Below are positions 1-39,164 of a stretch of 39,164 nucleotides of DNA, piece by piece. A program made the translations under genes and the position numbers. The DNA lies in the NCBI GenBank assembly GCA_964247135.1, contig CAXTTL010000015.1:1-39164 (forward strand). Reading direction: 5' to 3'. The notes beneath the pieces are model-generated. The model saw only the letters and a list, made by a program, of their open reading frames with translations. It was not told the origin of the DNA and ran no database searches. The stretch is from an uncultured Deinococcales bacterium. GTDB taxonomy: Bacteria > Deinococcota > Deinococci > Deinococcales > JAAFIG01. The first letter of the stretch is position 1; each line of letters opens with the position of its first letter.

Positions 1-1290
1 GGGATCGCATTTGGCTCACCGCCGCTCGAGCTTGCGGCATTGTTCTTGCTGCTGGGTGCGGCTGGTAAAAGTGCGCAGTTGCCACTTTCGACTTGGTTGC
101 CCGATGCAATGGCGGGTCCAACGCCCGTATCGGCTTTAATTCACGCTGCCACGATGGTCACGGCTGGCGTTTACTTGGTGGCACGTTCACACGCGATTTT
201 TGCCAATGCCCCTGGAGCGTCGAGTTGGGTGATGTGGATTGGCGCACTGACTGCCGTTTACGGGGCACTTTCTGCGATTGCCCAAACCGACATCAAGAAA
301 ATTCTGGCGTACTCCACGGTTTCGCAACTGGGTTATATGTTTATTGCCGTGGGTTCTGGCGCGTACTGGGTCGGGATTTTCCACGTGGCGACTCATGCGT
401 TCTTCAAAGCCTTACTCTTCCTCTCGAGCGGCAGTGTGATTCATGCTTTGGATGGTGAGCAAGACGTTCGTCAAATGGGTGGCTTGCGCGAGAAATTACC
501 AACCACACACATTGTGTCCTTGATTGGAACTTTAGCAATCGCAGGAATCATTCCGCTGGCGGGTTTTTTCAGCAAAGATGCGATTCTCTCCAGCGCGTTC
601 ACTTCGCCGTTTGGCGGCGAATTTAGCGGTTACCTCATCTGGGCAATTGGTCTGATCGTGGCGTTCCTGACGGCTGGCTACATGTGGCGTTGGTACACCC
701 TGGTTTTCTTGGGAACGTACCGTGGTCACGCGCACCCGCACGAAAGCTCGAGCGTCATAACCGTGCCACTTTGGACTCTGGCTGTCCTCAGCGTGGTCGG
801 AGGCTTTATCGGTCTGCCGCATTTCCTTGGCAAGAACGTCAACTGGCTCGAGCGTTTCCTTGAGGAAGCCGCACCGAATGCACTTGGTTTCCATGAAATT
901 CCACTTTGGGGTGAATTGATTTTGATTCTGCTGGCGCTCGCCGCCGCCGTTGGTGGCATCCTCCTCTCGAGATGGATTATCGCTCGAGACGGTGTGAACA
1001 GTGCGGGTTGGATTGCCACGCGATTTGGCAATGCTTCACGCAAAGCCTTGTTCCTCGACCAAACGTATGATGTCGCGGTTTCCGCTCCCGCCAAATTTAT
1101 TTCAGAACAACTCGAGCTTGCTGATACGCACGGTTTGGATCGCGGCATTGGCGCAATCGCCAACGGGACAGCCGAAGCGGGCGCAAGCCTCAGCGTTTGG
1201 CAATCTGGTTTTGTGCGGGCTTACGCGATTGCGGTGTTGCTTGGCACGGCAATTCTGGTTGGCTACTTGGCGTTAAGGAGCTTCGCATGA
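1..1290 (+). CDS. nuoL: NADH-quinone oxidoreductase subunit L (Nqo12), 5'-truncated by window
   Basis: GKSAQLPLSTWLPDAMAGPTPVSALIHAATMV, DIKKILAYSTVSQLGYM and HAFFKALLF motifs; frame open from base 1. Confidence 0.97.
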   Translation, partial: GIAFGSPPLELAALFLLLGAAGKSAQLPLSTWLPDAMAGPTPVSALIHAATMVTAGVYLVARSHAIFANAPGASSWVMWIGALTAVYGALSAIAQTDIKKILAYSTVSQLGYMFIAVGSGAYWVGIFHVATHAFFKALLFLSSGSVIHALDGEQDVRQMGGLREKLPTTHIVSLIGTLAIAGIIPLAGFFSKDAILSSAFTSPFGGEFSGYLIWAIGLIVAFLTAGYMWRWYTLVFLGTYRGHAHPHESSSVITVPLWTLAVLSVVGGFIGLPHFLGKNVNWLERFLEEAAPNALGFHEIPLWGELILILLALAAAVGGILLSRWIIARDGVNSAGWIATRFGNASRKALFLDQTYDVAVSAPAKFISEQLELADTHGLDRGIGAIANGTAEAGASLSVWQSGFVRAYAIAVLLGTAILVGYLALRSFA

Positions 1291-2750
1291 TTCACCTGAT
1301 TATTTTCATCCCGCTCCTGTTCGCGTTGGTTGGGCTGTTCTTGCGTGGTCAAGCTCGAGCTTCAATCTCGATTTTCGCGGCGTTGTCTTCGTTCGCGCTG
1401 ACGGCTGTCGTTTGGATTGCCAAGATTGACACCGTGTACCGCACCCCTTGGATTCCTGGCGCTGGTGTGTTTTACAGTGTGACCTTCGACGGTCCAAGTT
1501 TGCTGCTGGCACTCGTCGCCACGCTGATGACTTCAATCACCCTGATTTACTTTTCGTTCCGCAAAGACAGCCACCAAGCCGAGGGCATGTACCCGCTCGC
1601 GCTGGCGATGCTGACGGGTTTGCTCGGTATTTTCGCCGCTCGAGATTTGATTTTGTTTTACGTGTTCTTCGAGGCAACGCTCGTGCCAAGTTTGTTTATG
1701 CTCGGTTTGTACGGACGCAAAAATCGGGTTCGCGCCTTGATGAAAATGGCACTCTACACGATTTTCGGCGGTCTGTTGATGCTCGTCAGCATCATCGCCA
1801 CCAAGCTCTACACAAACTCCCCGAGCTTTGACTTCCTCGAGTTGTTCGGACGCACCTCGCAACTCGACCTCGAGACGCAGACTTGGTTGTTCCTGGGTTT
1901 TGTGGCTGCATTTGCGGTCAAACTGCCGTTGTTTCCGCTTCACAATTGGTTGCCCGATTTTCATGCCGAGAACCATCCTTCTGGCGTTGCCGATGTCATG
2001 GGAACGCTGTACAAGGTTGGTGGTTACGGTTTGTTCAGGTTTGCACTGCCGTTGTTTCCTGCCGCCGCGCAAAACCTGCAATGGGTTTTCATGACCCTCG
2101 CCGCATTCACCGCGCTTTACGGGGCTTGGATCGCCTTCTCGAGCAAGGACTTCAAGCGTTTGCTGGCTTACGCCGGACTTTCGCACATGGGCTTGGTCGC
2201 GCTTGGCATGTTCAGCCTCAACCCCATCGGTATGGCTGGCGCGTTGTTTTTGCTGGCTTTCCAAGGCGTTTACTCGAGCGCGTTGTTTTTGATCGTCGGG
2301 ATGCTCGAGGAACGCCTCAACAAAGATTCGCACAACGAAAAAACCACCTCGCAAGCCCTCGAGATTGGGCATGTTCGCGGTCTTGCCGCCAGCGCTCCAG
2401 CGTTCGCGGGAGTCGCACTCATCCTGTGGTTCGCCAGCATCGGCGTGCCAGGCTTGGCAGGTTTCATTGGCGAGTTCAGCGTGTTCTTGGGTGCTTACCA
2501 AGCCAACCCTTGGGCAACCGCGCTCGCCGTCTCAACCGTAATTGCCTCTGCTGCCTTCGCCCTGACCGCCTACCAACGCACCTGGCTCGAGGAAGCCACC
2601 ACCAGCATTCCAGAATTGAACACCAAAGATTGGTTTGTGCTCGTGCCGATTTTGGCTGTCACCGTGTTCTTTGGCGTGTTCTCGGGGTCTGCGCTCAAAC
2701 TGCTCGAGCCGAGCGTTCAAGCCGTCGCAGGACTCTTGGGGGGTAAGTGA
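1287..2750 (+). CDS. nuoM: NADH-quinone oxidoreductase subunit M
   Basis: FYVFFE, AFAVKLPLFPLHNWLP, PGLAGFIGEF motifs; AAGGAG RBS and ATGA overlap with nuoL stop put the start at 1287. Confidence 0.96.
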   Translation: MIHLIIFIPLLFALVGLFLRGQARASISIFAALSSFALTAVVWIAKIDTVYRTPWIPGAGVFYSVTFDGPSLLLALVATLMTSITLIYFSFRKDSHQAEGMYPLALAMLTGLLGIFAARDLILFYVFFEATLVPSLFMLGLYGRKNRVRALMKMALYTIFGGLLMLVSIIATKLYTNSPSFDFLELFGRTSQLDLETQTWLFLGFVAAFAVKLPLFPLHNWLPDFHAENHPSGVADVMGTLYKVGGYGLFRFALPLFPAAAQNLQWVFMTLAAFTALYGAWIAFSSKDFKRLLAYAGLSHMGLVALGMFSLNPIGMAGALFLLAFQGVYSSALFLIVGMLEERLNKDSHNEKTTSQALEIGHVRGLAASAPAFAGVALILWFASIGVPGLAGFIGEFSVFLGAYQANPWATALAVSTVIASAAFALTAYQRTWLEEATTSIPELNTKDWFVLVPILAVTVFFGVFSGSALKLLEPSVQAVAGLLGGK

Positions 2751-4174
2751 TGAATTTCGTTGCGCCTGATGTCAATTACTACTCGATGCTACCGTTCATC
2801 ACGGTGTTGCTGACCGCAATCTTCGCCACCATTCTGCCGTTTTACGTCTCGAGAAAAGCGATTGCGGGTTTGAGTGCCGTTGGTTTGCTGATCGCCCTGG
2901 TCGAAAGCATTGCCTTGTGGAACACCAACCTCTCGAGCTTTTACGGTGCATTTCGCGCCGATAACTTCGCGCTCGGATTTGACGTGGTGCTGATCGTCGG
3001 CGCACTCATCGCCATCATCTCGAGCGTCGATGTTGCCAAGCGCGGTGGTACGATGCAAGCTGAATTTTTTGCGATTTTGTTGTACGCCGTTTCAGGCACA
3101 ATGCTGCTGGCTCACGCCCATGATTTGATCGTGTTGTTGATCGGTTTTGAAGTCATGAGCCTTGGTGTGTACGTGCTCTCGAGCTTCCAAGAAACCGCCA
3201 AAAGCGAAGAGGCAGGCATGAAATACTTCCTGCTCGGTGGTTTCGCCAGCGCCATCTTAATTTTTGGCATTGCGCTGGTCTTTGGCGCAACAGGCAAATT
3301 CGGACTCGAGGCAATCAATACTTCAATCCTCAGCCCAGAATTTAAAAACTCGAGCATCGCCGCCGTGGGTGCGCTCTTTATCTTGATTGGTTTTGGTTTT
3401 AAAGTGGCAATGGCTCCGTTTCACCAGTGGACTCCAGATGTCTACACGGGTGCGCCAACCGTTGTCACACAATTCATGAGCGTTGCCGTCAAAGCTGCCG
3501 CGTTCGCGGGCTTCTTGCACATTTTCGGGCTTGCCTTGCAAAACGTTTCCGGCTGGCAAACCCCACTGCAATTCCTGATCGCCCTCACGCTGATGATCGG
3601 CAACCTTGCGGCGCTTCGTCAAAGCAAGCTCAAACGAATGCTGGCATACTCGAGCGTCGCCCACGCGGGTTATATCGGGCTGGCGGTGCTGGCAAGTCCA
3701 AGCCAAGGCTTCTCGAGCGCCCTGTATTACCTGGGCATTTACACGCTCATGAACGCTGGTGCGTTTGCGGTGTTGAACGTGCTTTCCAAAGACGATGACG
3801 GTCTGGAGATTGAAAGTTTGGCAGGTTTAGGCTCGAGCAAACCCTTGCTGGCAGCCACGCTGACCTTCTTCTTGCTGTCACTGGCTGGTATTCCGCCTTT
3901 GGGTGGGTTCATTGGCAAGTACCTGATTTTCAGTGCCGCCGCCAGCAGTGGTTATTACGGTTTGGTGATCCTTGCCGCCATCACCAGCGCCATTTCACTG
4001 GCGTACTACTTGCGCCCAATCGGGTTAATGTACTTCCGCCCTCGAGTGACCGTGTTGCCCGATTTCAGTGGACGCAGCACTCGAGTGTTACTGCTGGTTT
4101 GCGCGGCTGGGGTTTTGATTCTCGGGCTTGTGCCGAACGCGGTGTACGGTTTGCTCGAGCTTGTAAAGAGGTAA
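2747..4174 (+). CDS. nuoN: NADH-quinone oxidoreductase subunit N
   Basis: SEEAGMKYFLLG, GFKVAMAPFHQWTPDVYTGAPT, KRMLAYSSVAHAGY motifs; follows nuoM. Confidence 0.96.
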   Translation: MMNFVAPDVNYYSMLPFITVLLTAIFATILPFYVSRKAIAGLSAVGLLIALVESIALWNTNLSSFYGAFRADNFALGFDVVLIVGALIAIISSVDVAKRGGTMQAEFFAILLYAVSGTMLLAHAHDLIVLLIGFEVMSLGVYVLSSFQETAKSEEAGMKYFLLGGFASAILIFGIALVFGATGKFGLEAINTSILSPEFKNSSIAAVGALFILIGFGFKVAMAPFHQWTPDVYTGAPTVVTQFMSVAVKAAAFAGFLHIFGLALQNVSGWQTPLQFLIALTLMIGNLAALRQSKLKRMLAYSSVAHAGYIGLAVLASPSQGFSSALYYLGIYTLMNAGAFAVLNVLSKDDDGLEIESLAGLGSSKPLLAATLTFFLLSLAGIPPLGGFIGKYLIFSAAASSGYYGLVILAAITSAISLAYYLRPIGLMYFRPRVTVLPDFSGRSTRVLLLVCAAGVLILGLVPNAVYGLLELVKR

Positions 4175-4188
4175 GAATTTCGGGAGTT

Positions 4189-4221
4189 AAACGAGGCGCA
4201 AATTTGCGCCTCGTTTGTTTT
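4189..4221 (+). terminator. Intrinsic terminator of the nuo operon
   Basis: Perfect 28-bp palindrome AAACGAGGCGCAAA/TTTGCGCCTCGTTT followed by GTTTT, 14 bp after the nuoN stop. Confidence 0.8.
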
Positions 4222-4266
4222 GTGCGTCGGTTTTCGCTCGAGGCACGGTGAAATTCAGTAAAACAT

Positions 4267-4295
4267 TTGCGAAGAGTTCAAAAATGCGCTACGCT
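4267..4295 (+). promoter_or_regulatory. Sigma70-type promoter for the TA operon, leaderless-type
   Basis: TTGCGA-17 bp-TACGCT, then ATG at 4302 after a 6-nt gap with no RBS. Confidence 0.55.
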
Positions 4296-4301
4296 GAAAA
4301 C

Positions 4302-4475
4302 ATGAGCACGCCCACACCAAAAACCCGAGCAAAAAAACAGAGTGCGGCTGCGTATTTGGTGTCACTGGCACGAAAAATCGAAGCTGAAGCTCCTGCTGAA
4401 CAACTCAAACGCTTACCTCGAGATGGCGCTAAGAACCACAATCATTATTTGTATGGTGCGCCAAAAATCAAGTGA
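4302..4475 (+). CDS. Putative antitoxin (VapB-like), 57 aa
   Basis: Small ORF with C-terminal LPRDGAKNHNHYLYG motif of the kind seen in PIN-associated antitoxins; GTGA overlap with the PIN gene. Confidence 0.75.
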   Translation: MSTPTPKTRAKKQSAAAYLVSLARKIEAEAPAEQLKRLPRDGAKNHNHYLYGAPKIK

Positions 4476-4879
4476 AACAAGTTTTCATAGACGCTGCACC
4501 GCTAATCTCTCTGATAAACCCTCGAGATCAGTACCACGAAATCATTGTGCTCGCTTTTGATGATTTGGACGGCGCAGAGCTGATTATCACAGATGCTGTG
4601 CTCACAGAATTCCTGAATTACTACGCGGAACGAGGTTCTTATTTCCGAGAATTGGCGTTGGGTGCAGTGAAGAACCTGATGTTGCGACCTGATGTCACGG
4701 TGATACATCAAAGTAAATACTTGTTCCATTTGGCGCTCGAGCGTTTTGAAGACAGGCAAGACAAGGGGTACAGCCTCACCGATTGTCTGAGCATGATTGT
4801 GATGGAAACACACGGGATTTCTGAGGTCTTAACCACCGATTCGCATTTTAAACAACCAGGATTTAAGTTAATTCCATAG
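4472..4879 (+). CDS. vapC: PIN-domain VapC-family toxin (ribonuclease)
   Basis: VFIDA, VLTEF, YSLTDCLS, LTTDSHF acidic PIN motifs; 135 aa. Confidence 0.9.
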   Translation: MKQVFIDAAPLISLINPRDQYHEIIVLAFDDLDGAELIITDAVLTEFLNYYAERGSYFRELALGAVKNLMLRPDVTVIHQSKYLFHLALERFEDRQDKGYSLTDCLSMIVMETHGISEVLTTDSHFKQPGFKLIP

Positions 4880-4948: not shown

Positions 4949-5003
4949 GATTCTCAAGCTCGAGCTTTACGGTTATGATTGCCCTCAGAAACCCGAGGAT
5001 TGA

Positions 5004-6194
5004 ATGCGATTACTTCACACCGCCGATTGGCACGCTGGACGCAACTTGCGCGGCATTGACCGCACCCCAGAAATCCGTGAAAGCCTCTCCGAAATCCTCG
5101 AGATTGCCGTGTCCGAAAAAGTCGATGCCATTTTGGTGGCGGGTGATTTGTTCGATTCTCCCAACCCCAGCGCCGATGCCGAGGCTGCGGTTTACGATTT
5201 CTTCCTCGAGTCTGGTGCGGCTGGCATTCCGAGCGTGGTGATCGCGGGAAACCACGACAGTCCGCAGCGTCTCGAGAGCGTGTCAGGGCTTTTAAAACGC
5301 GTGAAAGTCAGCGCGTTTGGCGTGATGAAAGCCGATTCCAAAGCCTTTGAACTCGAGCTTGATGCGGGCAAATTGGTGGTGGCTGGACTGCCGTTTTTAT
5401 CCGAACGCCGTTTGGTGAAAGCCGCCAGCCTGATGGATGGCGAGTTTGACACTGGCGTCTGGCGGCAAAAATACCGTGAGGGTATGGGTTTTTTTATTGA
5501 TAAACTCAGCGCTGGTTTTCAGACCAATGCGGTCAACATCATGATGCTGCACACCACGCTCGAGGGTGGCACGCTTTCGGGTTCGGAGTTCTCGTTTTTT
5601 GTGACCAATTCTTACGCCATCAGTCCAGATCAGTTGCCCTCGAGTGCGCAGTACGTGGCATTGGGGCATTTGCACAAACCGCAACGATTGGGCGAAAACC
5701 CCGTGATCGAGTACGCGGGCAGCATCGTGCAACTCGATTTTGGCGAGGCGGGCGAGCAAAAACGCGTCAACCTGATCGAAGCCTTCCCGGGTCGTCCCGC
5801 CAAGGTTCACAGCATTCCCCTGACGCGCCACAAGACCCTTAAAAACGCATCCGTGAGCTTGGATGGTCTGGAGAGTAGGCTCGAGGAATTCAGAAGCTTT
5901 AACGGGCTTTTGAAGGTCACGGTCAAACTCGAGCATCCGATGCCAGGACTCAAAGACCGCGTGATGGGAATTTTGCCAAACGCGGTGGCGGTCGAGGTCG
6001 AACTCGAGGAGGGGAGTGCGGCAAAACGCGCCCTCGAAGCTCAATCCACGCAAAGCCTCGAGCCGATAGAAGCCTTCAAAAAGTATTACTCCGAAAAACG
6101 CGGCAAAGACGTGCCAGAAGATGTTCAGGCGGCGTTTCTCGAGTTGTACTCGCAAACGATGGGCGAATCTCGAGAACCTGAAACCTTGGTCTGA
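5004..6194 (+). CDS. sbcD: SbcD/Mre11 nuclease subunit
   Basis: HTADWH, AGDLFD, IAGNHDS, YVALGHLH phosphoesterase motifs; C-terminal SbcD region; sbcC nearby. Confidence 0.95.
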   Translation: MRLLHTADWHAGRNLRGIDRTPEIRESLSEILEIAVSEKVDAILVAGDLFDSPNPSADAEAAVYDFFLESGAAGIPSVVIAGNHDSPQRLESVSGLLKRVKVSAFGVMKADSKAFELELDAGKLVVAGLPFLSERRLVKAASLMDGEFDTGVWRQKYREGMGFFIDKLSAGFQTNAVNIMMLHTTLEGGTLSGSEFSFFVTNSYAISPDQLPSSAQYVALGHLHKPQRLGENPVIEYAGSIVQLDFGEAGEQKRVNLIEAFPGRPAKVHSIPLTRHKTLKNASVSLDGLESRLEEFRSFNGLLKVTVKLEHPMPGLKDRVMGILPNAVAVEVELEEGSAAKRALEAQSTQSLEPIEAFKKYYSEKRGKDVPEDVQAAFLELYSQTMGESREPETLV

Positions 6195-6233: not shown

Positions 6234-7004
6234 ATGCCTCGAGTGATGGGTTTTGATATCGGACGCGTGTTGGTCGTGCTGTTCATGGCATGGTACGGCT
6301 TGACCAATTTAAAATACCGTTGGATGTTTCTGGACAACGTCAATTTGATCATTCACGAGGCTGGGCATCCGTTGTGGGGTGTCTTCGGCGAGTTCTCAAT
6401 GTTTCTGGGTGGCTCATTGACCCAGATTCTGGTGCCGCTCGCGTTTCTGGGTTACTTCTGGTTCGCCCGTCAACGGTTTGCGGCTTGCGCCGTCGCGTTG
6501 TGGACTGCCAGCAGTCTGTTCAACCTCGCGGTGTACATCGGGGATGCTCGAGCGATGGAATTACCGCTGTTGGGTGGTGATAATTCGACCCACGATTGGA
6601 ATTGGATTCTCTCCGAGTTGAATGCCCTGCCTTCAGACCTGGCAATTTCGGGTTTTGTTCGTGGCGTGGGCGTGTTGTTTTTGGCGTTCAGCGTGATTGG
6701 AGGTTTGTACTTTGCTCGAGGTGACGAGATGCCCTTACTGTGGGAGGTGAAACGCGTCATGAAAATCTCGAAGATGCGCAATTTGGGTCCAAAATCCGAA
6801 GCCATGCTCGCCAAAATCGGGGTGAACTCGAGTGCAGACCTCGAGCATTTGGGTGCGGTGGAAGCCTTCAAACGGTTGCAATCTGGCGGTGAGAAAGTCA
6901 GTTTGCTGATGCTCTACGCCATGCACGGCGCTCTGACCAACCAAGCTTGGGAACTGTTGCCGCCCGACGAAAAACAAGCATTAAGACAAGCTGTTGAAGT
7001 ATGA
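6234..7004 (+). CDS. HExGH membrane protein (M50-like) fused to TfoX C-terminal domain
   Basis: Several TM segments with IHEAGH, YIGDA, HDWN; C-terminal NLGPKSEAMLAKIGV..LGAVEAFKRL..LLMLYAMHGAL matches TfoX_C. Confidence 0.75.
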   Translation: MPRVMGFDIGRVLVVLFMAWYGLTNLKYRWMFLDNVNLIIHEAGHPLWGVFGEFSMFLGGSLTQILVPLAFLGYFWFARQRFAACAVALWTASSLFNLAVYIGDARAMELPLLGGDNSTHDWNWILSELNALPSDLAISGFVRGVGVLFLAFSVIGGLYFARGDEMPLLWEVKRVMKISKMRNLGPKSEAMLAKIGVNSSADLEHLGAVEAFKRLQSGGEKVSLLMLYAMHGALTNQAWELLPPDEKQALRQAVEV

Positions 7005-7115: not shown

Positions 7116-7168
7116 TTTCTAGAACTTTCTCGAGCAACGCGATAAGCTAAGACTCTTAGGAGTTTATC

Positions 7169-9940
7169 TTGCGTCCCATCAAACTCGAGTTAACCGGTTT
7201 CACGTGCTTTAAAGAACTGCAATCGATCAGTTTTGAGGATTTGGAATTGTTTGCGATTGTCGGACAGACGGGCGCGGGCAAGTCGAGCATTCTCGATGCG
7301 ATCACCTATGCGCTGTTCGGTGAAACCTCGCGGCTCGGCTCGAGGGGTTTGGAACAACTCGTTTCGCAGGGCGCGAACGGAATGCAGGTGGCGCTCGAGT
7401 TTGAATCTGGGCATGAGCGTTTTCGGGTGTCTCGAGCCTGGAGCGTCAAAGCCGCCGAGCGTCAAGTGCGCTTTGAAAAATTTGATGGCGCTCGCTTTGT
7501 CACGGCAGTCGAAGGTGTGAAAGTCAAAGACGTGGCGGGCGCCATTCAGGCGGTTGTGGGTTTGGATTTTGACGGTTTCACCCGAGCCATTTTGCTGCCC
7601 CAGGGCGAGTTTGATCGCTTCTTGCGCGGCGATGCCAAGGAGCGCCGCGAACTCTTGAAGGGCTTACTGAACCTCGAGCATTTTGAAGCCATGCGCGAAC
7701 GGGCGAACACGATTGCCAGGGACGCCAAAGCCCGTTCCGATCAGATCAAATTGTTGCTCGAGGGCGAGTACGCGGGGGCGACACTCGAGGCGAGTGAGGC
7801 GTTGGAGGTTGAACTCGAGGCGCTCAAAATCAGAATTACAGCCTTGGCATTGCAACTCGAGCGTGATCGGGTGTTGCTTGCTGAAGCCCGAGAATTGCAG
7901 AAATTCGGTCTTGAACTCGAGCGGGTCAAACAAAAATTAAAAGCACTCGAGCTTCAAAATCTCGAGGTTGCCACTGCTCGAGAACGTGCGGTTTTGGCGC
8001 GGCGCGTGGCATCGGTCATGCCACTCGTGACGGCGCTGGAACGTGCGGAAACTGGTTTGCAAAAATCGAATCAAGAACTCGTTCAAGCCAAACTCGAGCT
8101 TGAAAAAGTGAACGCGCTCGAGGTCAGTACGGATGCCAAACTCGATGCGGCACGCGAAGCGGCGGAAATCCTGCCCGAACTCGAGCATCAGGCGAACGAA
8201 CTCGCGTCGTCCATGCCCAAACTTGAGCGCCTGCGTGCTTTGGGTGGAAATTTGGAGTTGACGCACGAAGCGCCTGCGGTTTTTTCCGAGCGGCGCATGG
8301 CGGAACTCGAGGAGTTGAAAGCCAAACTCGGTGATCTCAAACGGGCGGTGACGGACGCTCGAGATGCGAATCGGGATTTGAGTGACGCAAAATCTAGTTT
8401 CGAGAAACTCGGTTTGCAACTCGAGAAACTCAAAACGGATTTGAGCGCTTGCAAAATTTCAGGCACAGAAACTGGTGCTCGAGTCAAAGAACTTGAGGTC
8501 GATTTGACCCAAGCCAGACGCGATGAAGGTGCGGCGGCACTCACGGTCGGTTTGAAGATTGGCGACCCTTGCCCGGTTTGCGGCACGCCGTTAAAAGTCC
8601 TGCCAGGGCAATCCGAATCTCGAATTCCCGACCTTGAACACCTCTTGGAACTCGAGCGGGTGAAGTTGGTTGACCTCCGTGGCGAATACCAGCGGCTGCT
8701 CGAGTCACAAAAAAACGCGCAGGTCAATTTTGAAAAAACCCAAGTTGAAACCGAAAAACTGACGCGTCAACTCAAACAAACCAGCGAACAAGTGACACTG
8801 ATCAAACTCGAGTTTGAACGGACGCTCGGCTCAAACGAAGACCCAAAAACATTGCTCGAGGACACCCGAAATCGCTTGCTGGCGGGGTTGGCGCTCGAGA
8901 TTCGTGAAGCCACAAACGGGCGCGACCCTGTGGCGGTGATTGCGGAGCTTTCCAAACGCCGCAAGACCTTGCAAACCAATTTGGATATGGCTCGAGAGGC
9001 AAAAGCCAAAGTGCAAGCCGCCAGCGCTCAAACCAGAACCGCGCTCGAGATTGCCGAAAAAACGGTGCAAGAAAGAAGCTTGGAACTCGAGGAGCGCCAA
9101 ACTGACGTGAATTCGGGTTTGCGTGAAGCTGGAATCTCGAGCATCGATCAAGCTCGGAGCGCGGCATTGCCCGAAAGGGAAATCTTCAAACTCGAGGCGC
9201 TGGAGCGCGAGCATCTGGAAGCCTTGAACGCCGCGCGAAACGATGAAATCAGGATTCTCGAGCAACTGGCGGGACGGGTGTTTGATGCTGAGGTTTTAAA
9301 CGAACTCGAGAAAGATGTCAGGCAAGCCGAGTTTGACCAGAAAACCGCCAACGGCGAACAGGGCAGGCTCGAGCAACTGCAAAAAAATATGGCAGAGCGC
9401 CGCGCCAAAGCCAAAGATTTAAGCCGCGAACGCAACCAACTCGAGAAGCGATACGATATTTACGCGGCGCTGGCGGCGGATTTAAAGGGCAACGAGTTTC
9501 AAGAATTCATGCTCGAGGGCGTGCAACAAGAATTGCTGCTGCGGGCATCACATATCATGCGAGAAGTCACCCGAGAACGCTATACCCTCGAGTTGAAAGA
9601 GGGCGAGTATGTGGTGCTGGACAATTGGAACGGACTGGATGCCCGCAGCGTCAAAACGCTTTCCGGCGGCGAGAGCTTTATTGCTTCATTGTCCTTGGCG
9701 TTGGCGCTCTCGGATTATCTGGCGGGACACAAGGCTTTGGGCGCGTTGTTCCTCGATGAAGGTTTTGGCACACTCGATGCCGACGCTCTCGATGCCGTGT
9801 CATCCGTGCTTGAGGCGATTCAGACCCAGGGGCGCATGGTCGGTGTGATCACCCATGTGGCGAGCCTTGCCGAACGCCTGCCGAACCGTTTGGTGATCGA
9901 AAAAGGACAAAGCACCAGCCGCGCCCATTGGGAATCCTAA
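7169..9940 (+). CDS. sbcC: SbcC/Rad50 SMC-like ATPase
   Basis: Walker A GQTGAGKS, LPQGEF Q-loop, coiled coils, CPVCG zinc hook, LSGGE signature, FLDEGFG Walker B; TTG start with AGGAG RBS. Confidence 0.96.
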   Translation: MRPIKLELTGFTCFKELQSISFEDLELFAIVGQTGAGKSSILDAITYALFGETSRLGSRGLEQLVSQGANGMQVALEFESGHERFRVSRAWSVKAAERQVRFEKFDGARFVTAVEGVKVKDVAGAIQAVVGLDFDGFTRAILLPQGEFDRFLRGDAKERRELLKGLLNLEHFEAMRERANTIARDAKARSDQIKLLLEGEYAGATLEASEALEVELEALKIRITALALQLERDRVLLAEARELQKFGLELERVKQKLKALELQNLEVATARERAVLARRVASVMPLVTALERAETGLQKSNQELVQAKLELEKVNALEVSTDAKLDAAREAAEILPELEHQANELASSMPKLERLRALGGNLELTHEAPAVFSERRMAELEELKAKLGDLKRAVTDARDANRDLSDAKSSFEKLGLQLEKLKTDLSACKISGTETGARVKELEVDLTQARRDEGAAALTVGLKIGDPCPVCGTPLKVLPGQSESRIPDLEHLLELERVKLVDLRGEYQRLLESQKNAQVNFEKTQVETEKLTRQLKQTSEQVTLIKLEFERTLGSNEDPKTLLEDTRNRLLAGLALEIREATNGRDPVAVIAELSKRRKTLQTNLDMAREAKAKVQAASAQTRTALEIAEKTVQERSLELEERQTDVNSGLREAGISSIDQARSAALPEREIFKLEALEREHLEALNAARNDEIRILEQLAGRVFDAEVLNELEKDVRQAEFDQKTANGEQGRLEQLQKNMAERRAKAKDLSRERNQLEKRYDIYAALAADLKGNEFQEFMLEGVQQELLLRASHIMREVTRERYTLELKEGEYVVLDNWNGLDARSVKTLSGGESFIASLSLALALSDYLAGHKALGALFLDEGFGTLDADALDAVSSVLEAIQTQGRMVGVITHVASLAERLPNRLVIEKGQSTSRAHWES

Positions 9941-11113: not shown

Positions 11114-11703
11114 AACGCCAAATCTCGAGAATTGCGATTGGTGTTTTAAGTCTTTTCGTGTTGATTTACGCGTTGGCTTTGGTCTGGCTGGCAACCCAGA
11201 TCAAAGACGACGCTCGAGCCTCGGATGCCGTAATTGTGCTTGGGGCGCGGGTCAATTACAACGATCACCTCAACCCGTGTTTGGTCGCTCGGGTGCAACA
11301 CGGCGCAAAATTGCTGCGGGACGGACTGGCAAAATTCTTGATCGTCTCGGGCGGTAACGATGTTGAAGACGGCGCAAACGAGGCAAATGCCATGCGTGAA
11401 ATCGCGCTGGCTGCTGGCATCTCGAGCGAGCAAATCATCCTCGAACCCAAAGCCACCAGCACCTTTGAAAACCTCGCGTTTTCCAAAATCATCCTCGAGC
11501 GACGAAAACTCAAATCGGTGATTGTCGTGACCGAGCCGTACCACATGCCCAGGGCAGCCATGATCGCCCGTAAACTTAAACTGGAATTCTCGAGTTCTCC
11601 CGCCCCAGAGAGCGCCTGCTGGAGTCGTTGGAAGCACTTTTCCAGGTTCTTTTTGCGCGAACCGTTCGCGGTGCTCGAAAATTGGCTGAAAGGGAATTTA
11701 TGA
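11110..11703 (+). CDS. YdcF/DUF218 family protein
   Basis: DAVIVLGA, LIVSGG, EANAM, LEPKATSTFEN, VVTEPYHMPRA, RE motifs; ATGA overlap. Confidence 0.9.
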   Translation: MKRQISRIAIGVLSLFVLIYALALVWLATQIKDDARASDAVIVLGARVNYNDHLNPCLVARVQHGAKLLRDGLAKFLIVSGGNDVEDGANEANAMREIALAAGISSEQIILEPKATSTFENLAFSKIILERRKLKSVIVVTEPYHMPRAAMIARKLKLEFSSSPAPESACWSRWKHFSRFFLREPFAVLENWLKGNL

Positions 11704-13386: not shown

Positions 13387-13451
13387 GTCATCACCAAAGC
13401 TCGAGTCTTAACAAAATCCCCATTCGAGCCAAGCTCGAGAAAGTTTAAACC

Positions 13452-15464: not shown

Positions 15465-15836
15465 TTACGGGCAGTTCGGAACTTCGTTGAGGTTGTAATA
15501 CACTGGGATTCCGCGTTCTTGCGCCAATTTGACATCGTTGTCCGCGCCTTTGGAGGCGCCCTTTAAACGCAAAACGGCATCGCAGAGTTGCAGCAAACGT
15601 CCTGCGGTTGGATGCAATACTTGCTCGTACAGATCATCGCCGACGGTTTGACCACCTGCAACTCGCCAAATTGGCAAGGCGACCCATTCGCCAATCATTG
15701 GAACATAGCCCGCCTGAAACAGCGCCCATGACACCGATTCCAACTGCCGAAGGTTGGCTGCCATTTTGGTTGGGTCATCATTTGTGCCGCTGCGGTACGG
15801 ACCGGCAATCAAAATCATTTTGGGTTTGTTGGGCAT
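15465..15836 (-). CDS. DUF4406-like / nucleoside deoxyribosyltransferase-fold protein
   Basis: ILIAGPYRSG, PMIGEW, CDAVLRLKGASKGADND, GIPVY motifs; AGGAG RBS before ATG at 15836. Confidence 0.75.
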   Translation of the reverse strand: MPNKPKMILIAGPYRSGTNDDPTKMAANLRQLESVSWALFQAGYVPMIGEWVALPIWRVAGGQTVGDDLYEQVLHPTAGRLLQLCDAVLRLKGASKGADNDVKLAQERGIPVYYNLNEVPNCP

Positions 15837-16696: not shown

Positions 16697-16726
16697 GGGT
16701 TGTTGATAGGATGATTCATCTCGAGC

Positions 16727-16778: not shown

Positions 16779-16798
16779 GGCACCCAGGAGGCAAGACC

Positions 16799-24038: not shown

Positions 24039-24065
24039 GCGCAACTCCTTATGGGATTGCCAAGG

Positions 24066-24129
24066 AGGGCGCAGCTTCTTGACCCTACAGCAGCACCTAA
24101 CGGGCTTGGGGCGCAAGCAGCGCCCCTAC
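24066..24129 (-). repeat. Two degenerate tandem GTAG REP units between iolD and iolC
   Basis: Minus strand GTAGGGGCGCTGCTTGCGCCCC and GTAGGGTCAAGAAGCTGCGCCCT. Confidence 0.6.
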
Positions 24130-24141
24130 ATAATTTCTGAA

Positions 24142-26022
24142 TCATTCCGTGACCTTTAAATACGAACGTTGTTTTTTGATTTTCTCGTCATATTCCGCTC
24201 GAGCTTCCTGCACGCCGTTTTGCCCTGAGACTTCAGCGGGTGGCGCATCCCACCAACTTTCAAAGCCGCCGACGCGTTTTTCGGGGTCAACAAAAACGTG
24301 AATCACCGCCACGCGATCTGACTTTTTGGCTTCGAGCAGCGCGGTCTTAAATTCGCTTTCGGTGTGTGCTGTCCACGCTCGAGCGCCCATCGCTTGCCCG
24401 TGCATGGCAAAATCCACGGGAATAAAAGGTCCATCGTAACGGCTGTTCTCTTCGCGGTAGCGCAGCTCGAGTCCAAACGTGGGGCTGCCTTGGCTGCGCT
24501 GGAGGCTGTGAATGCTCTGAAAGCCGTGGTTGTCCACGACGATGATGATTGGTTTCAAACCTTCTTGTACGGCGGTGACAATCTCAGAGTTCATCATCAA
24601 ATATGATCCGTCACCGACCATCACAAAAACGTCGCGGTTTGGTTCGGCAAGTTTGACCCCGATGGCGGCTGGAATTTCGTAGCCCATGCAGGAAAAACCG
24701 TACTCGAGGTGGTAACTTTTGGGGTCGGTGGGTCGCCAGAGTTTGGGTAAATCTCCTGGCATCGAACCTGCGGCGCAGATCACCACGCCATGCCCGCCCG
24801 CCACGTCGTTGACCATGCCGATCACTTCGGCTTGTGAGAGGTTGTCTGGTTCTTTGACGGTGCGCAGATCATCAACGATCTTGTCCCATTCGAGTTTCAG
24901 ATCAGTGATATTTTTTTGATACTCACTCGAGATTTTATGATTCTCCAGATGCTCGAGTAAAGTTTTTAAGGTTCGTTTGGCATCTCCCACCACGGGCAAG
25001 GCGTTTTGTTTGTGAGCGTCCATCGCACCCACATTGATGCCGATAAATTGCACGTTTGGGTTTTGAAATGCGCTCTTGGAAGCGGTTGGGAAATCTGCGA
25101 GGCGCGTACCAATCGCAATCACAAGGTCAGCCTCTCGAGCCAGTTTGTTGGCGGCACTCGTGCCGAGCGTTCCGACCACGCCCACATTCTGCGCGTGATT
25201 CCAGGGCAGCACGCCTTTGCTGGCTTGGGTTTCAGACACCGCAATGCCTGTACTCGAGACCAACTGCTCGAGTTCGGTGTTTGCGCCCGAATACGTCACG
25301 CCGCCACCCGCCACGATCAATGGTTTTTTGGCGGCACGAATTAGCTCACAGGCTCGAGCGATCAATTCTGGTTCGGCGACAGGGCGGCGAATCCGCCAGA
25401 CGCGCTTGGCGAAAAACTCGAGCGGGTAATCGTAAGCCTCAGTTTGCACGTCCTCGCACAAGCTTAAGGTCACCGCGCCCGTTTCGGCAGGGTCGGTCAG
25501 AATTCTGAATGCTTCGGGAAGGCTCGAGATGACCTGTTCGGGTCGTGAAATGCGGTCAAAATACCTCGAGACGGGTCTGAAGGCATCGTTGGCGCTGGAA
25601 TCGCGCTCGAGCGGATGCTCCATTTGTTGCAGCACGGGGTCGGGCAGGTGATTGGCGAAGTAATCGCTTGGAAGCAATAAAACTGGCAGGCGGTTGATGG
25701 TCGCCAGTGCCGCACCAGTCACCATATTGGTCGAACCTGGTCCGATGCTGGCGGCGCAGGCATAAGTCTGCAAACGGTTTTGATGCTTGGCGAAAGCCGA
25801 GGCGACATGCACCATGCCTTGCTCGTTTTGTGGGCGGTAATGCGGCATCTGCAAATCGCTGCCGTATTCCTCGAGCGCCTGCCCGATGCCCGCCAGGTTG
25901 CCGTGTCCGAAAATGCCCCAGACACCCGCAATAAAACGCTGCTCGAGTCCGTCGCGGAGGGTGTATTGATTGGCGATGAAATGCACCACGGCTTGTCCCA
26001 TTGTCAGTCGAATGGTTTGCAT
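24142..26022 (-). CDS. iolD: ThDP-dependent THcHDO hydrolase
   Basis: IRLTMGQA, GIFGHGN, NEQGMVH, SIGPG, PDPVLQQ, EYGFSCMGYE, GDGSYLM motifs. Confidence 0.96.
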   Translation of the reverse strand: MQTIRLTMGQAVVHFIANQYTLRDGLEQRFIAGVWGIFGHGNLAGIGQALEEYGSDLQMPHYRPQNEQGMVHVASAFAKHQNRLQTYACAASIGPGSTNMVTGAALATINRLPVLLLPSDYFANHLPDPVLQQMEHPLERDSSANDAFRPVSRYFDRISRPEQVISSLPEAFRILTDPAETGAVTLSLCEDVQTEAYDYPLEFFAKRVWRIRRPVAEPELIARACELIRAAKKPLIVAGGGVTYSGANTELEQLVSSTGIAVSETQASKGVLPWNHAQNVGVVGTLGTSAANKLAREADLVIAIGTRLADFPTASKSAFQNPNVQFIGINVGAMDAHKQNALPVVGDAKRTLKTLLEHLENHKISSEYQKNITDLKLEWDKIVDDLRTVKEPDNLSQAEVIGMVNDVAGGHGVVICAAGSMPGDLPKLWRPTDPKSYHLEYGFSCMGYEIPAAIGVKLAEPNRDVFVMVGDGSYLMMNSEIVTAVQEGLKPIIIVVDNHGFQSIHSLQRSQGSPTFGLELRYREENSRYDGPFIPVDFAMHGQAMGARAWTAHTESEFKTALLEAKKSDRVAVIHVFVDPEKRVGGFESWWDAPPAEVSGQNGVQEARAEYDEKIKKQRSYLKVTE

Positions 26023-26084: not shown

Positions 26085-26236
26085 AAACGAAACCTGATGG
26101 AAAGCTTGCACTTTGATCGTCAAGAAGGAAAAAATTCTAGATTTACATGCTTTTATTTTATTGGTTTGCGCTTTCGTTTGTCAAAGAAAAACTTTAAAAC
26201 GAAAGGATTTACTTTCGTTTGCGAAACTCGAGTTTC
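26085..26236. promoter_or_regulatory. Repeated operator-like sites in the iolD/recQ divergent region
   Basis: AAACGAAAG-6 nt-CTTTCGTTT inverted repeat (26197-26220), extra half-sites at 26171 and 26085; AT-rich. Confidence 0.55.
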
Positions 26237-26260: not shown

Positions 26261-28237
<1,977 letters not shown>

Positions 28238-31455: not shown

Positions 31456-31645
31456 AGATCAAAACGCTCTGTTGAGCACGGCATTTCAGGATTTAGTATC
31501 AAATCGGGAGTCTCTCGAGTTGCGACGATCTCCGAATTTTGCAAACCTCAATGACGGCATAACCCAAAGCCCCTCAGCTCGAGCGTGAGTGAATTTAAGA
31601 TTCGAGAAAGGTTAAACTGCAAACTCGAGCTTCAAGGAGGAACGT

Positions 31646-36971: not shown

Positions 36972-37080
36972 AAAATCGCTTTTTGCTTGTATTTTTGATT
37001 GCTCGAGATTTTGAAAATAGGATTCAAATTTTATTCGCATTGTCAATAGTTTAAAGATCAAATTATTCAATTCTCGAGTC

Positions 37081-38154: not shown

Positions 38155-39164
38155 GCCCAACTCACTTTTAAAGGCAGGTGTTTGATGCCAGAAATAAAAT
38201 TCGAGCGCAATCGTTCGGGCGTGCCGTTCAGTGCAATGCTTGAGAGTTTGGGCAGCAATTCCTCGAGCAAGATTTTCACTTCGATTCGTGCCAGGTGCTC
38301 CCCCAAGCACTTGTGCGGGCTTTTTAAACCAAATGCCAGGTGCTCGTTTGGGTGGCGTTTGATGTTGAACGAGTACGGATGTTCAAATTGCCGTTCGTCG
38401 TAATCGCCCGCGATGTACCAGATCAAAACCTTGTCGCCCGCTTTGATGCTTCTGCCCTCGAGCGTCGTGTCTTGAATTGCTGTGCGTCTGAAGTGCATGG
38501 TGACCGTTCCCCAACGCAAAATTTCTTCCACCGCGTCATCCATCAAATTTGGATTCTCGCGCAACTCTGCCAGTTGCTCTGGATGCTCGAGCAGCGCCAT
38601 GATTCCTGCCGTCATGGTGTAGCGCGTGGTGTCCGTTCCCGCCGCAATCAGCAGGGTGAAGAAATTCTTGAATTCCATTTCCGAAAGCGGTTCGCCGTCG
38701 CGTTTGGGTTGCAGCAACCTCGAGATCACATCGTCGGTTGGGTTATCGCGCCTGATTCGGGCTTGTTCTTCGGCATACGCAAAAAGCTCGAGGCTGACTG
38801 GGCTGCGAAATGGAAGCAAACGGTATTGGTCGGTGTTGACCAAACTGACTGGCGTTTCGGTAAATTCGGGGTCGTCGTTGCCCAAGAGCGCATCGCCTTT
38901 TTTGACCAGCATCGGACCGTCCTGATCGGGCGTGCCAAGCATTTTCCCAAGCATCCGCATTGGCAATTGTCGCGCCAAAAGTTCAACAAAATCAAACTCG
39001 GTCTGCCCACCAATTTCGTCAATCACACCTCGAGCCAACAACCGAATGCCCATCTCGTAAGACGCGACCTCTCGAGCCGAAAATGGCGGCTGCACCATGC
39101 GCCGATATGCCGTGTGCTCGGGCGGGTCCATCTCCATCACGGTTTTTCTCGCCTCGAGTTCATT
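38151..39164 (-). CDS. Cytochrome P450, 5'-truncated by window
   Basis: DPPEH, AAGTDTT I-helix, EEILR, heme motif FGLKSPHKCLG; frame open to window end. Confidence 0.95.
   Translation of the reverse strand, partial: NELEARKTVMEMDPPEHTAYRRMVQPPFSAREVASYEMGIRLLARGVIDEIGGQTEFDFVELLARQLPMRMLGKMLGTPDQDGPMLVKKGDALLGNDDPEFTETPVSLVNTDQYRLLPFRSPVSLELFAYAEEQARIRRDNPTDDVISRLLQPKRDGEPLSEMEFKNFFTLLIAAGTDTTRYTMTAGIMALLEHPEQLAELRENPNLMDDAVEEILRWGTVTMHFRRTAIQDTTLEGRSIKAGDKVLIWYIAGDYDERQFEHPYSFNIKRHPNEHLAFGLKSPHKCLGEHLARIEVKILLEELLPKLSSIALNGTPERLRSNFISGIKHLPLKVSWA

Follow-up and report, generated by a model that had tools for sequence, protein, structure and literature searches.

CTCGAG as a genome-wide self word in an uncultured Deinococcales family

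Why does a stretch of DNA from an uncultured Deinococcales bacterium carry the palindrome CTCGAG 333 times? The window, that is, the whole stretch of 39,164 bases analyzed here, contains 8.50 sites per kb, while 100 dinucleotide-preserving shuffles of it gave 8.82 ± 2.84 sites (maximum 15) and none of them reached 333. According to the original prediction, made from the letters alone, CTCGAG behaves like the highly iterated palindrome HIP1 of cyanobacteria, with a different motif. All of its counts were reproduced on recounting (170 sites in the first 20 kb, 29 in positions 1-4200 and 36 within sbcC, in the ORF 7169-9940), and the eight intergenic sites that it named (4237, 4959, 7129, 13400, 16720, 26227, 31514, and 37073) are all present and outside gene calls. 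The sites and features of the window are as follows:

1..39164, whole window: CTCGAG 183 times in the Leu-Glu frame, 52 times as nCT-CGA-Gnn, 72 times as nnC-TCG-AGn and 26 times outside called genes
4237..4242: site in the gap that separates the last Proton_antipo_M gene from the ORF 4472-4879
4959..4964: intergenic site upstream of sbcD (5004-6194)
7129..7134: site in the gap that separates the TfoX_C-domain ORF from sbcC
7169..9940, + strand: sbcC-like ORF with AAA_23, SMC_N and SbcC Walker B domains; 36 sites (13 per kb), a dense in-gene example
11124..11594: five sites (11124, 11213, 11421, 11494, 11589) where the caller kept no gene; coding status uncertain
13400..13439: two sites (13400, 13434) in the intergenic DNA upstream of the ORF 13452-14153
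16720..16725: site in the gap that separates the DeoR regulator gene from the ORF 16727-17965
26227..26232: site in the intergenic DNA between two divergent genes, the TPP-enzyme gene (24142-26022, - strand) and recQ (26261-28237, + strand)
31514..31629: three intergenic sites (31514, 31578, 31624) in a single divergent region
37002..37078: two intergenic sites (37002, 37073)

Abundance and unit of the word

The genome to which the window belongs (G000; 5,091,702 bases, 386 contigs, GC 52.7%) holds 33,925 copies of CTCGAG, 6.66 per kb or about one site per 150 bp, which amounts to about 4% of its bases; the runner-up among hexamers that do not overlap it has 6,081 copies. Coverage is very even, with only 2 of 825 5-kb windows below 2 sites per kb. 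The ratio of observed to expected counts (O/E) is 24.7 by base composition and 24.7, 35.2, 14.4, 3.45, and 1.24 for Markov orders 0 to 4, the higher orders being circular, since CTCGAG itself dominates the 4- and 5-mers. For comparison, HIP-type words are short palindromes over-represented at least 15-fold genome-wide, and CTCGAG exceeds that figure both by base composition and under the first-order model (35).

The unit of enrichment is the bare hexamer, with unconstrained flanks. One-mismatch variants, which had been remarked to be far rarer, number 203 to 4,350 per variant pair, and their own O/E lies near normal at 0.5-1.7, except for the pair that contains CTAG (0.08). The flank logo around CTCGAG in G000 is almost flat, no base exceeding 39%, and the flank analysis revealed no extended palindrome; the flanks of conserved sites are 0.83-0.85 identical to those of a congener, against a genome background of 0.848. 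Spacing, examined at short range in this 386-contig assembly, is near-random (CV 0.96), with neither helical nor any other phasing apart from the codon period.

A directional force on the DNA itself

Gene calls for G000 were ORF-based and made in this analysis (4,852 genes, 88.6% coding). CTCGAG occurs 18,535, 4,399, and 6,755 times in frames 0, 1, and 2, compared with 3,238, 316, and 588 expected from five replicates of within-gene synonymous-codon shuffles, an excess of 5.7-, 13.9-, and 11.5-fold. A codon-pair Markov model, itself inflated by CTCGAG, predicts 2,422 and 3,608 sites in frames 1 and 2, and the observed counts are 1.8-1.9-fold higher. Intergenic DNA carries 4,270 sites where 115 are expected at its GC content of 45.6%, a 37-fold excess (7.2 per kb vs. 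6.6 per kb in coding DNA). Density shows a two-fold peak after stop codons, reaches 9.3 per kb in short intergenic stretches (up to 300 bp) and, by intergenic class, is 10.7 per kb in convergent, 9.2 in tandem and 7.9 in divergent regions. Expressed as a log-odds shift (hand calculation), the effect is about 4.2, 3.1, 3.1, and 3.6 in frames 0, 1, 2, and intergenic DNA, alike in all four contexts. The claim that the word occupies all three frames and the spaces between genes beyond what protein coding can explain is borne out, at 6- to 14-fold over synonymous shuffles within genes. Two outcomes had been named beforehand as refutations, loss of the excess under codon controls and confinement to the Leu-Glu frame; the excess survives these controls and is not confined to that frame.

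What does this do to the proteins? The Leu-Glu frame accounts for 55% of sites, CTC-GAG encodes 78% of Leu-Glu dipeptides, and Leu-Glu is the most over-represented dipeptide of G000 (O/E 2.35), the reverse pair Glu-Leu standing at 1.01. Elsewhere than in Leu-Glu pairs, Leu is spelled CTC in only 15% of cases and Glu is spelled GAG in 32%. Where G000 and the word-poor genome G020 align, the former has 241 Leu-Glu pairs and the latter 92, and only 20% of the CTCGAG-coded pairs of G000 align to Leu-Glu in G020. The Leu-Glu excess arises by amino-acid replacements.

The sites are also retained. Over 253 kb aligned between G000 and its congener G005 (85% identity), CTCGAG sites are conserved at 79, 67, 79, and 72.5% in the four contexts, compared with 45, 45, 45, and 37% for other hexamers, while one-off variants fall below average (41, 29, 34, and 27%). 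Among tested hexamers CTCGAG ranks first of 99 in intergenic DNA, and 2nd of 591, 48th of 544 and first of 503 in the other contexts. The same site-conservation test was applied to HIP1 (Xu, Lawrence and Durand, 2018, PMC5861425). Intergenic sites match the congener at 0.89-0.98 identity vs. a baseline of 0.78-0.82; for synonymous third positions inside CTCGAG the figure is 0.76-0.92 vs. 0.64-0.75. All six positions are protected, T and A as well as C and G, in genes and between them, and no excess of C-to-T change was seen at either C in this alignment. The density of sites is independent of orthologue protein identity (Spearman 0.03, 101 pairs), with no preference for poorly conserved genes. 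A directional force acts on the DNA itself, about equally strongly in all frames and in intergenic DNA, and it is powerful enough to replace amino acids.

Relatives, acquired DNA and candidate genes

CTCGAG is a genome-wide self word of this uncultured Deinococcales family. All 18 family relatives, from five genera, carry it at 4.3-6.8 per kb, and orthologous sites are common to separate assemblies. Other Deinococcales lineages have 1.4-3.6 sites per kb and one large genus is depleted; the two large genera without enrichment are presumably Deinococcus and Thermus. The flanks of the word form “dialects” between lineages. A 2,269-base contig of the record “MAG: Deinococcales bacterium” (RecQ 62% identity) has 10 sites (4.4 per kb), and a GC-rich relative that favors CTC and GAG codons has a single site in 100 kb.

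CTCGAG is scarce in recently arrived DNA. The site-free stretches of G000 are low-GC islands (GC 0.27-0.40), the lowest-GC 2% of its genes carry 3.4 sites per kb, and an MvaI/BcnI cassette has one site in 1.56 kb. Restriction-modification cassettes with GC 0.42-0.48 already have 4-8 sites per kb; the word builds up more quickly than base composition adapts to the host genome.

Which genes could be responsible? The original prediction had suggested a link to methylation, and gene content gives this no support. Searches for five Pfam methyltransferase families found no orthologue common to all family genomes, in assemblies 57-94% complete and with specificity unreadable from sequence. PF00145 occurs in 17 of 18 relatives, with none found in G008, and PF01555 in 16 of 18, with none found in G011 (a single 5.1-Mb contig) or G015. 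The PF07669 matches are a mixture of type I and type IIG/L enzymes, and the widespread D12 enzyme adjoins a SacI-family nuclease and is also present in a CTCGAG-poor genome. At least 11 DNA methyltransferase genes lie in G000, several of them without a recognized nuclease alongside, such as a C5 enzyme on contig C178 and a 798-aa HsdM-like protein on contig C169, whose neighbors lie outside the scan. The repair nuclease Vsr (PF03852) was found in none of five family genomes (G000, G005, G008, G009, and G011; 84-94% complete), in a search whose control matched in E. coli, B. subtilis, and Caulobacter. The XhoI-family PF04555 had no match in G000, in a search that matched no control genome either, and the site itself is enriched there, not avoided. 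The uptake genes ComEC (contig C337) and DprA (contig C148) are present, although near-universal and uninformative, and the analysis identified no receptor candidate for word-bearing DNA.

The HIP1-like part of the original prediction stands in every property tested (hyper-abundance, conservation and family-wide spread); the methylation link finds no support in gene content. Its list of roles (repair, recombination, uptake and nucleoid organization) was so broad that it could hardly fail; the data limit it no further than to a force at the DNA level, acting on the bare hexamer and on all six positions.

Possible origins of the force and known systems

How could such a force arise? Our tentative reading is that it is tied to natural transformation or homologous recombination. 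Word-bearing DNA, possibly only when modified, would be preferentially taken up, spared or recombined, and this preferential handling would spread CTCGAG by molecular drive. The same model has been put forward for DNA uptake sequences and, of late, for HIP1. Protection of T and A cannot be explained by deamination repair; templated recombination with word-bearing DNA can explain it, and so can selection. The word is lineage-wide with dialects, the uptake core genes are present, and the doubling of Leu-Glu, the replacements, the scarcity in arrived DNA and the excess near gene ends resemble the footprints of uptake sequences. However, density does not depend on protein conservation, and all known uptake sequences are longer, sparser and less symmetric than a six-base palindrome recurring about once in 150 bp. 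It also counts against drive that, to our knowledge, the transformable model organisms of Deinococcota take up DNA without sequence preference, as does the lack of enrichment in the two large genera that are presumably Deinococcus and Thermus.

For uptake sequences, published work describes an encoded peptide that is about doubled, scarcity in recent genes, a preference for poorly conserved genes and a possible molecular drive (Findlay and Redfield, 2009, PMC2817400). The USS of Pasteurellaceae and DUS of Neisseriaceae described there share with CTCGAG the over-representation in coding and non-coding DNA, the near doubling of a peptide (here Leu-Glu), the low number in newly acquired genes, a certain surplus around gene ends and family-level dialects (PMC2817400). 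Differently to CTCGAG, they are 9-12 bases long, non-palindromic, present at about 1 per kb and often arranged as inverted pairs in terminators, where CTCGAG shows only its peak after stop codons; CTCGAG lacks the preference for poorly conserved genes and belongs to a different phylum. More doubtful is a wider form of the reading, in which CTCGAG would mark DNA as self across an order or the whole phylum Deinococcota and serve in natural transformation or in recombination, whether by aiding uptake, by giving protection or by stimulating crossovers. On this view its strength would be graded from 1.4-3.6 per kb in several genera to 4.3-6.8 per kb in the family, would be lost or reversed in one large genus, and would suffice to rewrite some 13,000 dipeptides of a proteome.

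Drive and selection cannot be told apart from substitution patterns. Alternatively, though rather improbably, CTCGAG may be the site bound or acted on by an abundant protein with a role in nucleoid organization, chromosome segregation, DNA repair or the discrimination of strands, and purifying selection may keep each copy, a case that has been made for HIP1 (Xu et al., 2018, PMC5861425). Conservation of 67-79% against 37-45%, below-average retention of one-off variants, even coverage, protection of all six positions and independence from protein conservation are all consistent with such a role, but spacing is near-random rather than regular, without phasing beyond the codon period, and no candidate protein emerged. 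Moreover, with about 34,000 sites each would have a tiny marginal value, yet Leu-Glu is 78% saturated and amino acids are replaced, which drive fits more easily. Chi and other architecture words are non-palindromic, strand-biased octamers enriched few-fold; they too are short self words of host DNA acting in recombination or chromosome handling, whereas CTCGAG is palindromic, which makes strand bias impossible, and is 25-fold enriched. Strand-biased architecture words are named in PMC5861425.

Biased repair linked to modification, in which a methyltransferase and a mismatch- or patch-repair nuclease convert near-matches to CTCGAG or restore sites, is unlikely. Elhai reportedly proposed such a process for HIP1. 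CTCGAG is the XhoI/PaeR7I-type site, for which methyltransferases exist, several methyltransferase genes of G000 have no recognized nuclease beside them, and the sites already present in the cassettes of GC 0.42-0.48 are what a mutational process would give. A link between HIPs and cognate methyltransferases has been published (Elhai, 2015, PMC4390886). However, no methyltransferase class was found in all family genomes, Vsr was found in none of the five searched, transition variants are undepleted (O/E 1.74, 1.43, and 1.17), T and A are protected like C and G, and C-to-T changes are not in excess. In E. coli, Dcm/Vsr very-short-patch repair, a bias tied to a methylated palindrome, can lift the counts of that word and its relatives. 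Its effect is modest compared with 25-fold, it depends on Vsr together with a C5 methyltransferase (none was found in G008), and it acts on C positions only.

There is virtually no case left for a by-product of codon, codon-pair or Leu-Glu preference, which would suit the majority of sites in the Leu-Glu frame and the favored CTC and GAG codons of GC-rich relatives, but not intergenic DNA as rich as coding DNA, the excess in frames 1 and 2 over both codon models, the modest use of CTC and GAG outside Leu-Glu pairs or the near-absence of the word from a relative with the same favored codons. Just as negligible are mobile or REP-like repeat copies and an assembly or library artefact, which have high copy number and nothing else in their favor: sites lie in frame within ordinary housekeeping genes, recur in all 18 other family assemblies and at orthologous positions, and flat flanks at background identity rule out a REP/MITE-type dispersed repeat.

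HIP1 has stood unexplained for thirty years, partly as a single case in one phylum. Like HIP1 (GCGATCGC) and the alternate HIPs of cyanobacteria, CTCGAG is a short, GC-rich, hyper-abundant palindrome in all frames and non-coding DNA, conserved over control words between related genomes where one-off variants are not, and lineage-wide with exceptions and variants (PMC5861425, PMC4390886). Unlike HIP1, it is a hexamer rather than an octamer, of other sequence and in Deinococcales, reaches 6.7 per kb, measurably reshapes the proteome and has no cognate orphan methyltransferase found tracking it; HIP1 has a reported periodicity (10-90 kb), at a range beyond the short-range spacing examined here.

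We found no published account of the CTCGAG system. If the self-recognition reading is true, CTCGAG would be the first example of its kind beyond Proteobacteria and cyanobacteria and, as far as we know, the densest. A second independent word with HIP1-like evolution allows comparison: features common to both are candidate causes, and those not found in both, here a tracking methyltransferase, are weakened as causes. The graded series within one order (depleted, neutral, moderately rich and rich) offers contrasts for phylogenetic profiling, and the moderately rich genera may include cultivable organisms. CTCGAG is also a strong binning and taxonomic signature, and it skews gene finders and codon-pair statistics. 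Digestion of G000 DNA with XhoI would give a cut about every 150 bp, and the word may be needed in transformation constructs for word-rich Deinococcales. Finally, with Leu-Glu as the top dipeptide and 78% of it in one spelling, this family shows the extent to which a DNA-level force bends a proteome.

CTCGAG in the window and in the genome

The palindromic hexamer CTCGAG occurs 333 times in the window (8.50/kb). The counts made by eye in the original prediction were exact (170 in the first 20 kb, 29 in positions 1-4200 and 36 in the sbcC ORF), and the eight intergenic sites that it named are all present and lie outside the gene calls made here. Dinucleotide-preserving shuffles of the window (n=100) yield 8.82 ± 2.84 copies, none of the 100 reaching 333. 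The parent assembly (G000; 5,091,702 bases in 386 contigs, GC 52.7%, 84% complete, with the window as contig C15) holds 33,925 copies, or 6.66/kb, which corresponds to 24.7 times the compositional expectation and to 4.0% of all bases. The most frequent hexamer without overlap to CTCGAG has 6,081 copies, and the second most enriched palindromic hexamer has an observed/expected ratio (O/E) of 3.7. Contigs of at least 5 kb range from 2.6 to 10.5 sites/kb, and two of the 825 5-kb windows fall below 2/kb.

Within genes, the word can be read as CTC-GAG (frame 0, Leu-Glu), nCT-CGA-Gnn (frame 1) or nnC-TCG-AGn (frame 2). The 4,852 genes of G000 (88.6% coding, called by an in-house ORF and codon-score procedure) contain 18,535, 4,399 and 6,755 sites in frames 0, 1 and 2, against 3,238, 316 and 588 expected from within-gene shuffles of synonymous codons, a control that is conservative because CTCGAG itself inflates codon usage. 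Under a codon-pair Markov model, frames 1 and 2 would hold 2,422 and 3,608 sites, and frame 0 sites are 16 times as frequent as the product of their codon frequencies. Intergenic DNA, which under these gene calls may take in some missed small genes, has 4,270 sites (7.2/kb), where its GC content of 45.6% would give 115. The density is 9.3/kb in intergenic stretches of up to 300 bp, and is alike outside all ORFs of at least 120 codons (6.3/kb in 31 kb of a congener, 8.6/kb in the window). The excess thus persists under codon and dicodon control and extends beyond the Leu-Glu frame. By hand calculation, the log-odds shift relative to shuffled or context-free expectation is about 4.2, 3.1 and 3.1 in frames 0, 1 and 2, and 3.6 in intergenic DNA; a shift so similar in all contexts points to a force on DNA and not on codons or peptides.

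The window also carries features unrelated to the count of sites:

Other features of the window
5004-6194: sbcD
6234-7004 (+): 256-aa ORF inserted between sbcD and sbcC, its C-terminal domain of the TfoX type (a competence-regulator family); the N-terminal 176 residues have no Pfam match
7169-9940: sbcC
15608-26022: probable inositol or sugar catabolism cluster, with a DeoR regulator, xylose-isomerase-like TIM barrel proteins, FGGY kinase, GFO/IDH/MocA oxidoreductase, PfkB kinase and TPP enzyme
17994-18049 and 24067-24114: two short dispersed repeats, intergenic or at gene ends, each with about 7-10 copies on other G000 contigs and congener copies at about 90% identity

The site, its conservation and its imprint on proteins

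The unit is the bare hexamer. Its flanks are nearly flat, the strongest preferences being G before and C after (38-39% each in G000), and these are not positively coupled (both in 12.5% of sites, 14.8% expected). Extended palindromes or hairpins around the sites do not exceed chance. CTCGAG accounts for 62% of all TCGA, the remaining NTCGAN words being ordinary or low in number; its one-off variants have about normal frequencies, with the transition variant commonest at every position. Spacing between sites is near-exponential (mean 148, median 108, CV 0.96), and the codon period is the only one visible. The density is almost even along genes, peaks two-fold over the 40 bases that follow stop codons, and reaches 10.7/kb in convergent, 9.2/kb in tandem and 7.9/kb in divergent intergenic regions. 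The longest stretches free of the word, islands with a GC content of 0.27-0.40, extend to 2,644 bases, and the lowest-GC 2% of genes have 3.4 sites/kb. Among 3,767 genes of at least 450 bases, 67 lack the word (Poisson expectation, 32). Read in any of the six frames, the sequence CTCGAG is free of stop codons, which may explain why every context tolerates it.

Conservation was assessed in a single congener pair, by comparing 390 kb of G005 with G000; the 99 aligned blocks total 253 kb at 85% identity. Of the CTCGAG sites of G000, G005 keeps 79% in frame 0, 67% in frame 1, 79% in frame 2 and 72.5% in intergenic DNA, compared with 45, 45, 45 and 37% for other hexamers. Among sufficiently frequent hexamers, the word ranks 2 of 591, 48 of 544 and 1 of 503 in the three frames and 1 of 99 in intergenic DNA. 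Its one-off variants are kept below average (41, 29, 34 and 27% in the same order of contexts), and the remaining NTCGAN words are ordinary in all four (30-46%). Other palindromes with four G or C bases are conserved at 29%, 46% and 32% in frames 0, 1 and 2; their intergenic value, 67%, is close to that of CTCGAG and comes from only 24 occurrences. All six positions of intergenic sites are protected (identity 0.89-0.98, baseline 0.78-0.82), as are third-codon positions within sites (0.76-0.92, baseline 0.64-0.75). No added conservation is seen in the 30 bases on either side, where identity is 0.83-0.85 vs 0.848 for the genome. Where sites differ, 25% have at least three changed positions, vs 12% of control hexamers; the differences are mainly transitions and fall evenly across the three half-site positions. 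When six congeners were aligned together, just 29 positions could be compared (13 common to all, 4 singletons and 5 single absences), too few to polarise gains and losses. As far as sequence comparison goes, the conservation of CTCGAG shows a directional force, and alone it cannot part selection from a drive that restores sites.

How deeply does this force reach into coding sequence? Leu-Glu dipeptides number 22,995 in G000 and are written CTC-GAG in 77.7% of cases, where context-free codon usage predicts 5%; elsewhere than in this pair, Leu is encoded by CTC 15% of the time and Glu by GAG 32% of the time. For frames 1 and 2, the word is used in 42% of [SPTA]-Arg-[VADEG] and 49% of X-Ser-[Ser/Arg] tripeptides. 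No dipeptide of the proteome is more over-represented than Leu-Glu (O/E 2.35; Glu-Leu, 1.01), whose excess comes to about 13,000 pairs by arithmetic from the dipeptide counts. In 41 orthologue pairs shared with the word-poor relative G020 (54% identity), Leu-Glu occurs 241 times in G000 vs 92 in G020. Only 20% of the CTCGAG-coded Leu-Glu pairs of G000 lie opposite Leu-Glu in G020, the others facing Leu-Asp, Leu-Ala, Leu-Gly, Val-Glu, Ile-Glu and further pairs; in the reverse direction, 50% of the Leu-Glu of G020 is Leu-Glu in G000. The asymmetry indicates that CTCGAG has been written into proteins through amino-acid replacement.

Distribution in the phylum and restriction-modification

All 18 other genomes of the family of G000 (f1, five genera, most of them incomplete metagenome assemblies) have 4.3-6.8 sites/kb. 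The nearest named record, a 2.3-kb contig labelled 'MAG: Deinococcales bacterium', has 4.4/kb; the remaining 79 loci compared belong to other phyla, and their median is 0.35/kb. Across a phylum sample of 201 genomes (one order, five families, the relatives not being independent of one another), the density is graded.

CTCGAG density outside family f1
Genera g13, g14 and g15 of family f5: 25 genomes, 1.4-3.5/kb, CTCGAG outnumbering its reverse, GAGCTC, 5- to 40-fold
Family f2: 40 genomes, 0.3 to 2.6/kb
Family f4: 9 genomes, 0.7 to 2.9/kb
Genus g9: 30 small genomes, 0.6-1.6/kb, CTCGAG:GAGCTC ratio near 1
Genus g7: 83 genomes, uniformly poor at 0.01-0.27/kb, poor in GAGCTC too
G196, of another genus in the family of g7: 3.6/kb

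Sampled DNA of G196 (GC 67%) has a CTCGAG O/E of 10 and a Leu-Glu O/E of 2.10, with 68% of Leu-Glu written as CTCGAG. G020, a g7 genome at GC 66.5%, has one CTCGAG per 100 kb sampled, a Leu-Glu O/E of 1.00 and CTCGAG in 1% of Leu-Glu; it is poor in the word though CTC and GAG should be favoured codons at this GC content. Together with an f2 genome at GC 46% and a CTCGAG O/E of 11.8, these contrasts imply that GC-rich codon usage alone does not account for the moderate enrichments, most GC-rich genomes having been counted without frame controls. The flanks follow 'dialects': family f1 favours G before and C after the word, and C before and G after are favoured by G196 (45% of sites) and by G025, another relative outside the family (37%). 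In G196:C1:1-100000, octamers such as those starting with ATTTGAAC or GATTTGAA are found about 50 times in 100 kb (O/E over 100), pointing to a CRISPR array or some other repeat, tandem or dispersed. At least 80 viral loci carry three CTCGAG within 78 bases; they are mostly GC-rich, with 2-5 sites/kb, and among the viral matches listed none resembles family f1 in composition, so they are uninformative on the family's own phages.

G000 is rich in restriction-modification pairs, which explain words that are avoided and not the favoured CTCGAG.

Nuclease and methyltransferase pairs of G000
C320:1061-2985: SacI-family nuclease (PF09566) adjoining a D12 methyltransferase; avoided word GAGCTC
C14:36040-37936: NgoPII-family nuclease adjoining a C5 methyltransferase; avoided word GGCC
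C36:19235-21059: PvuII nuclease and methyltransferase; avoided word CAGCTG
C207:3-1650: NotI-like pair
C189:4077-5632: MvaI/BcnI-family nuclease and N4/N6 methyltransferase; GC 38-40%, one CTCGAG in 1.56 kb

GAGCTC has no copy in G000 (about 1,371 expected) or in the window, and 0-25 copies in most family genomes. GGCC has 380 copies in G000 (O/E 0.02) and one in the window; avoidance is likewise extreme for CAGCTG (15), GGATCC (7), CGGCCG (3), GGGCCC (1) and CTAG (O/E 0.07). The NgoPII-family, PvuII and NotI-like pairs match avoided palindromes of this set. The absence of GAGCTC is separable from the excess of CTCGAG: one genome has 9 GAGCTC and no CTCGAG enrichment, and G008, a family member, has 568 GAGCTC yet 4.3 CTCGAG/kb. 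The C189 cassette looks recently acquired. Older, resident cassettes at GC 0.42-0.48 carry 4-8 sites/kb, and CTCGAG therefore accrues faster than base composition ameliorates. Two MmeI-like enzymes, an HsdM-like fusion, ComEC and DprA are also encoded.

The original prediction proposed looking for methyltransferase, Vsr-like or DNA-binding genes that track the word. In five Pfam families of methyltransferases, each searched across 5 to 31 genomes, no class is found in every family genome and no universal orthologue came to light; Vsr is found in none of five family genomes.

Methyltransferase families in relatives of G000
PF00145: 17 of 18 relatives; not found in G008 (91% complete)
PF01555: 16 of 18; not found in G011 (a single contig) or G015
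PF07669: 17 of 18, heterogeneous enzymes; not found in G015
PF02086: G000 and all four family genomes searched; also in word-poor G020
PF02384: G000 and all four family genomes searched; also in word-poor G020

Two candidates were set aside: PF07669 matches of about 500 aa turned out to be type I HsdM, and a 466-aa protein on C4 resembles an RNA methyltransferase. The XhoI nuclease profile matched neither G000 nor any control genome.

Nature of the force

No description of CTCGAG hyper-abundance was found, for Deinococcota or elsewhere, in a literature search with few subscription journals and with the HIP1 supplementary tables outside its scope; term searches returned none from the matching passages of PMC4390886, PMC5861425, PMC13756078 and PMC4060949. 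The closest parallel is HIP1, the highly iterated palindrome of cyanobacteria, which CTCGAG resembles in behaviour, including the conservation result of Xu, Lawrence and Durand as given in passages of their paper (PMC5861425). The two differ in word, length, phylum and density. In addition, tracking methyltransferases define the cyanobacterial case, whereas for CTCGAG none emerged from the five Pfam families searched.

Three explanations remain. The first in rank, held tentatively, is a templated drive in which word-bearing DNA would be preferentially taken up, spared or recombined. Such a drive would fit the equal action on all positions and contexts, as well as the doubled peptide, the word-poor new DNA and the lineage-wide word with its dialects, all features described for uptake sequences in passages of PMC2817400. 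Against it stand a density unrelated to protein conservation (Spearman 0.03 over 101 pairs) and a word that surpasses every known uptake sequence in density and symmetry and is shorter than all of them. The other two explanations are direct selection for a chromosome-level role and a different form of biased repair. Several observations speak against an origin in Vsr-like repair of deaminated bases: no Vsr is found in the five family genomes searched, transition variants show no depletion, protection extends to the T and A positions, and the sites of G000 and G005 reveal no surplus of C-to-T change at either C. As causes of the excess, codon or peptide preference, mobile repeats and artefact are excluded.

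What the data show is a force at the DNA level that targets the hexamer alone, is about equally strong in every context and covers all six positions. In this lineage it saturates most synonymous opportunities and replaces amino acids.
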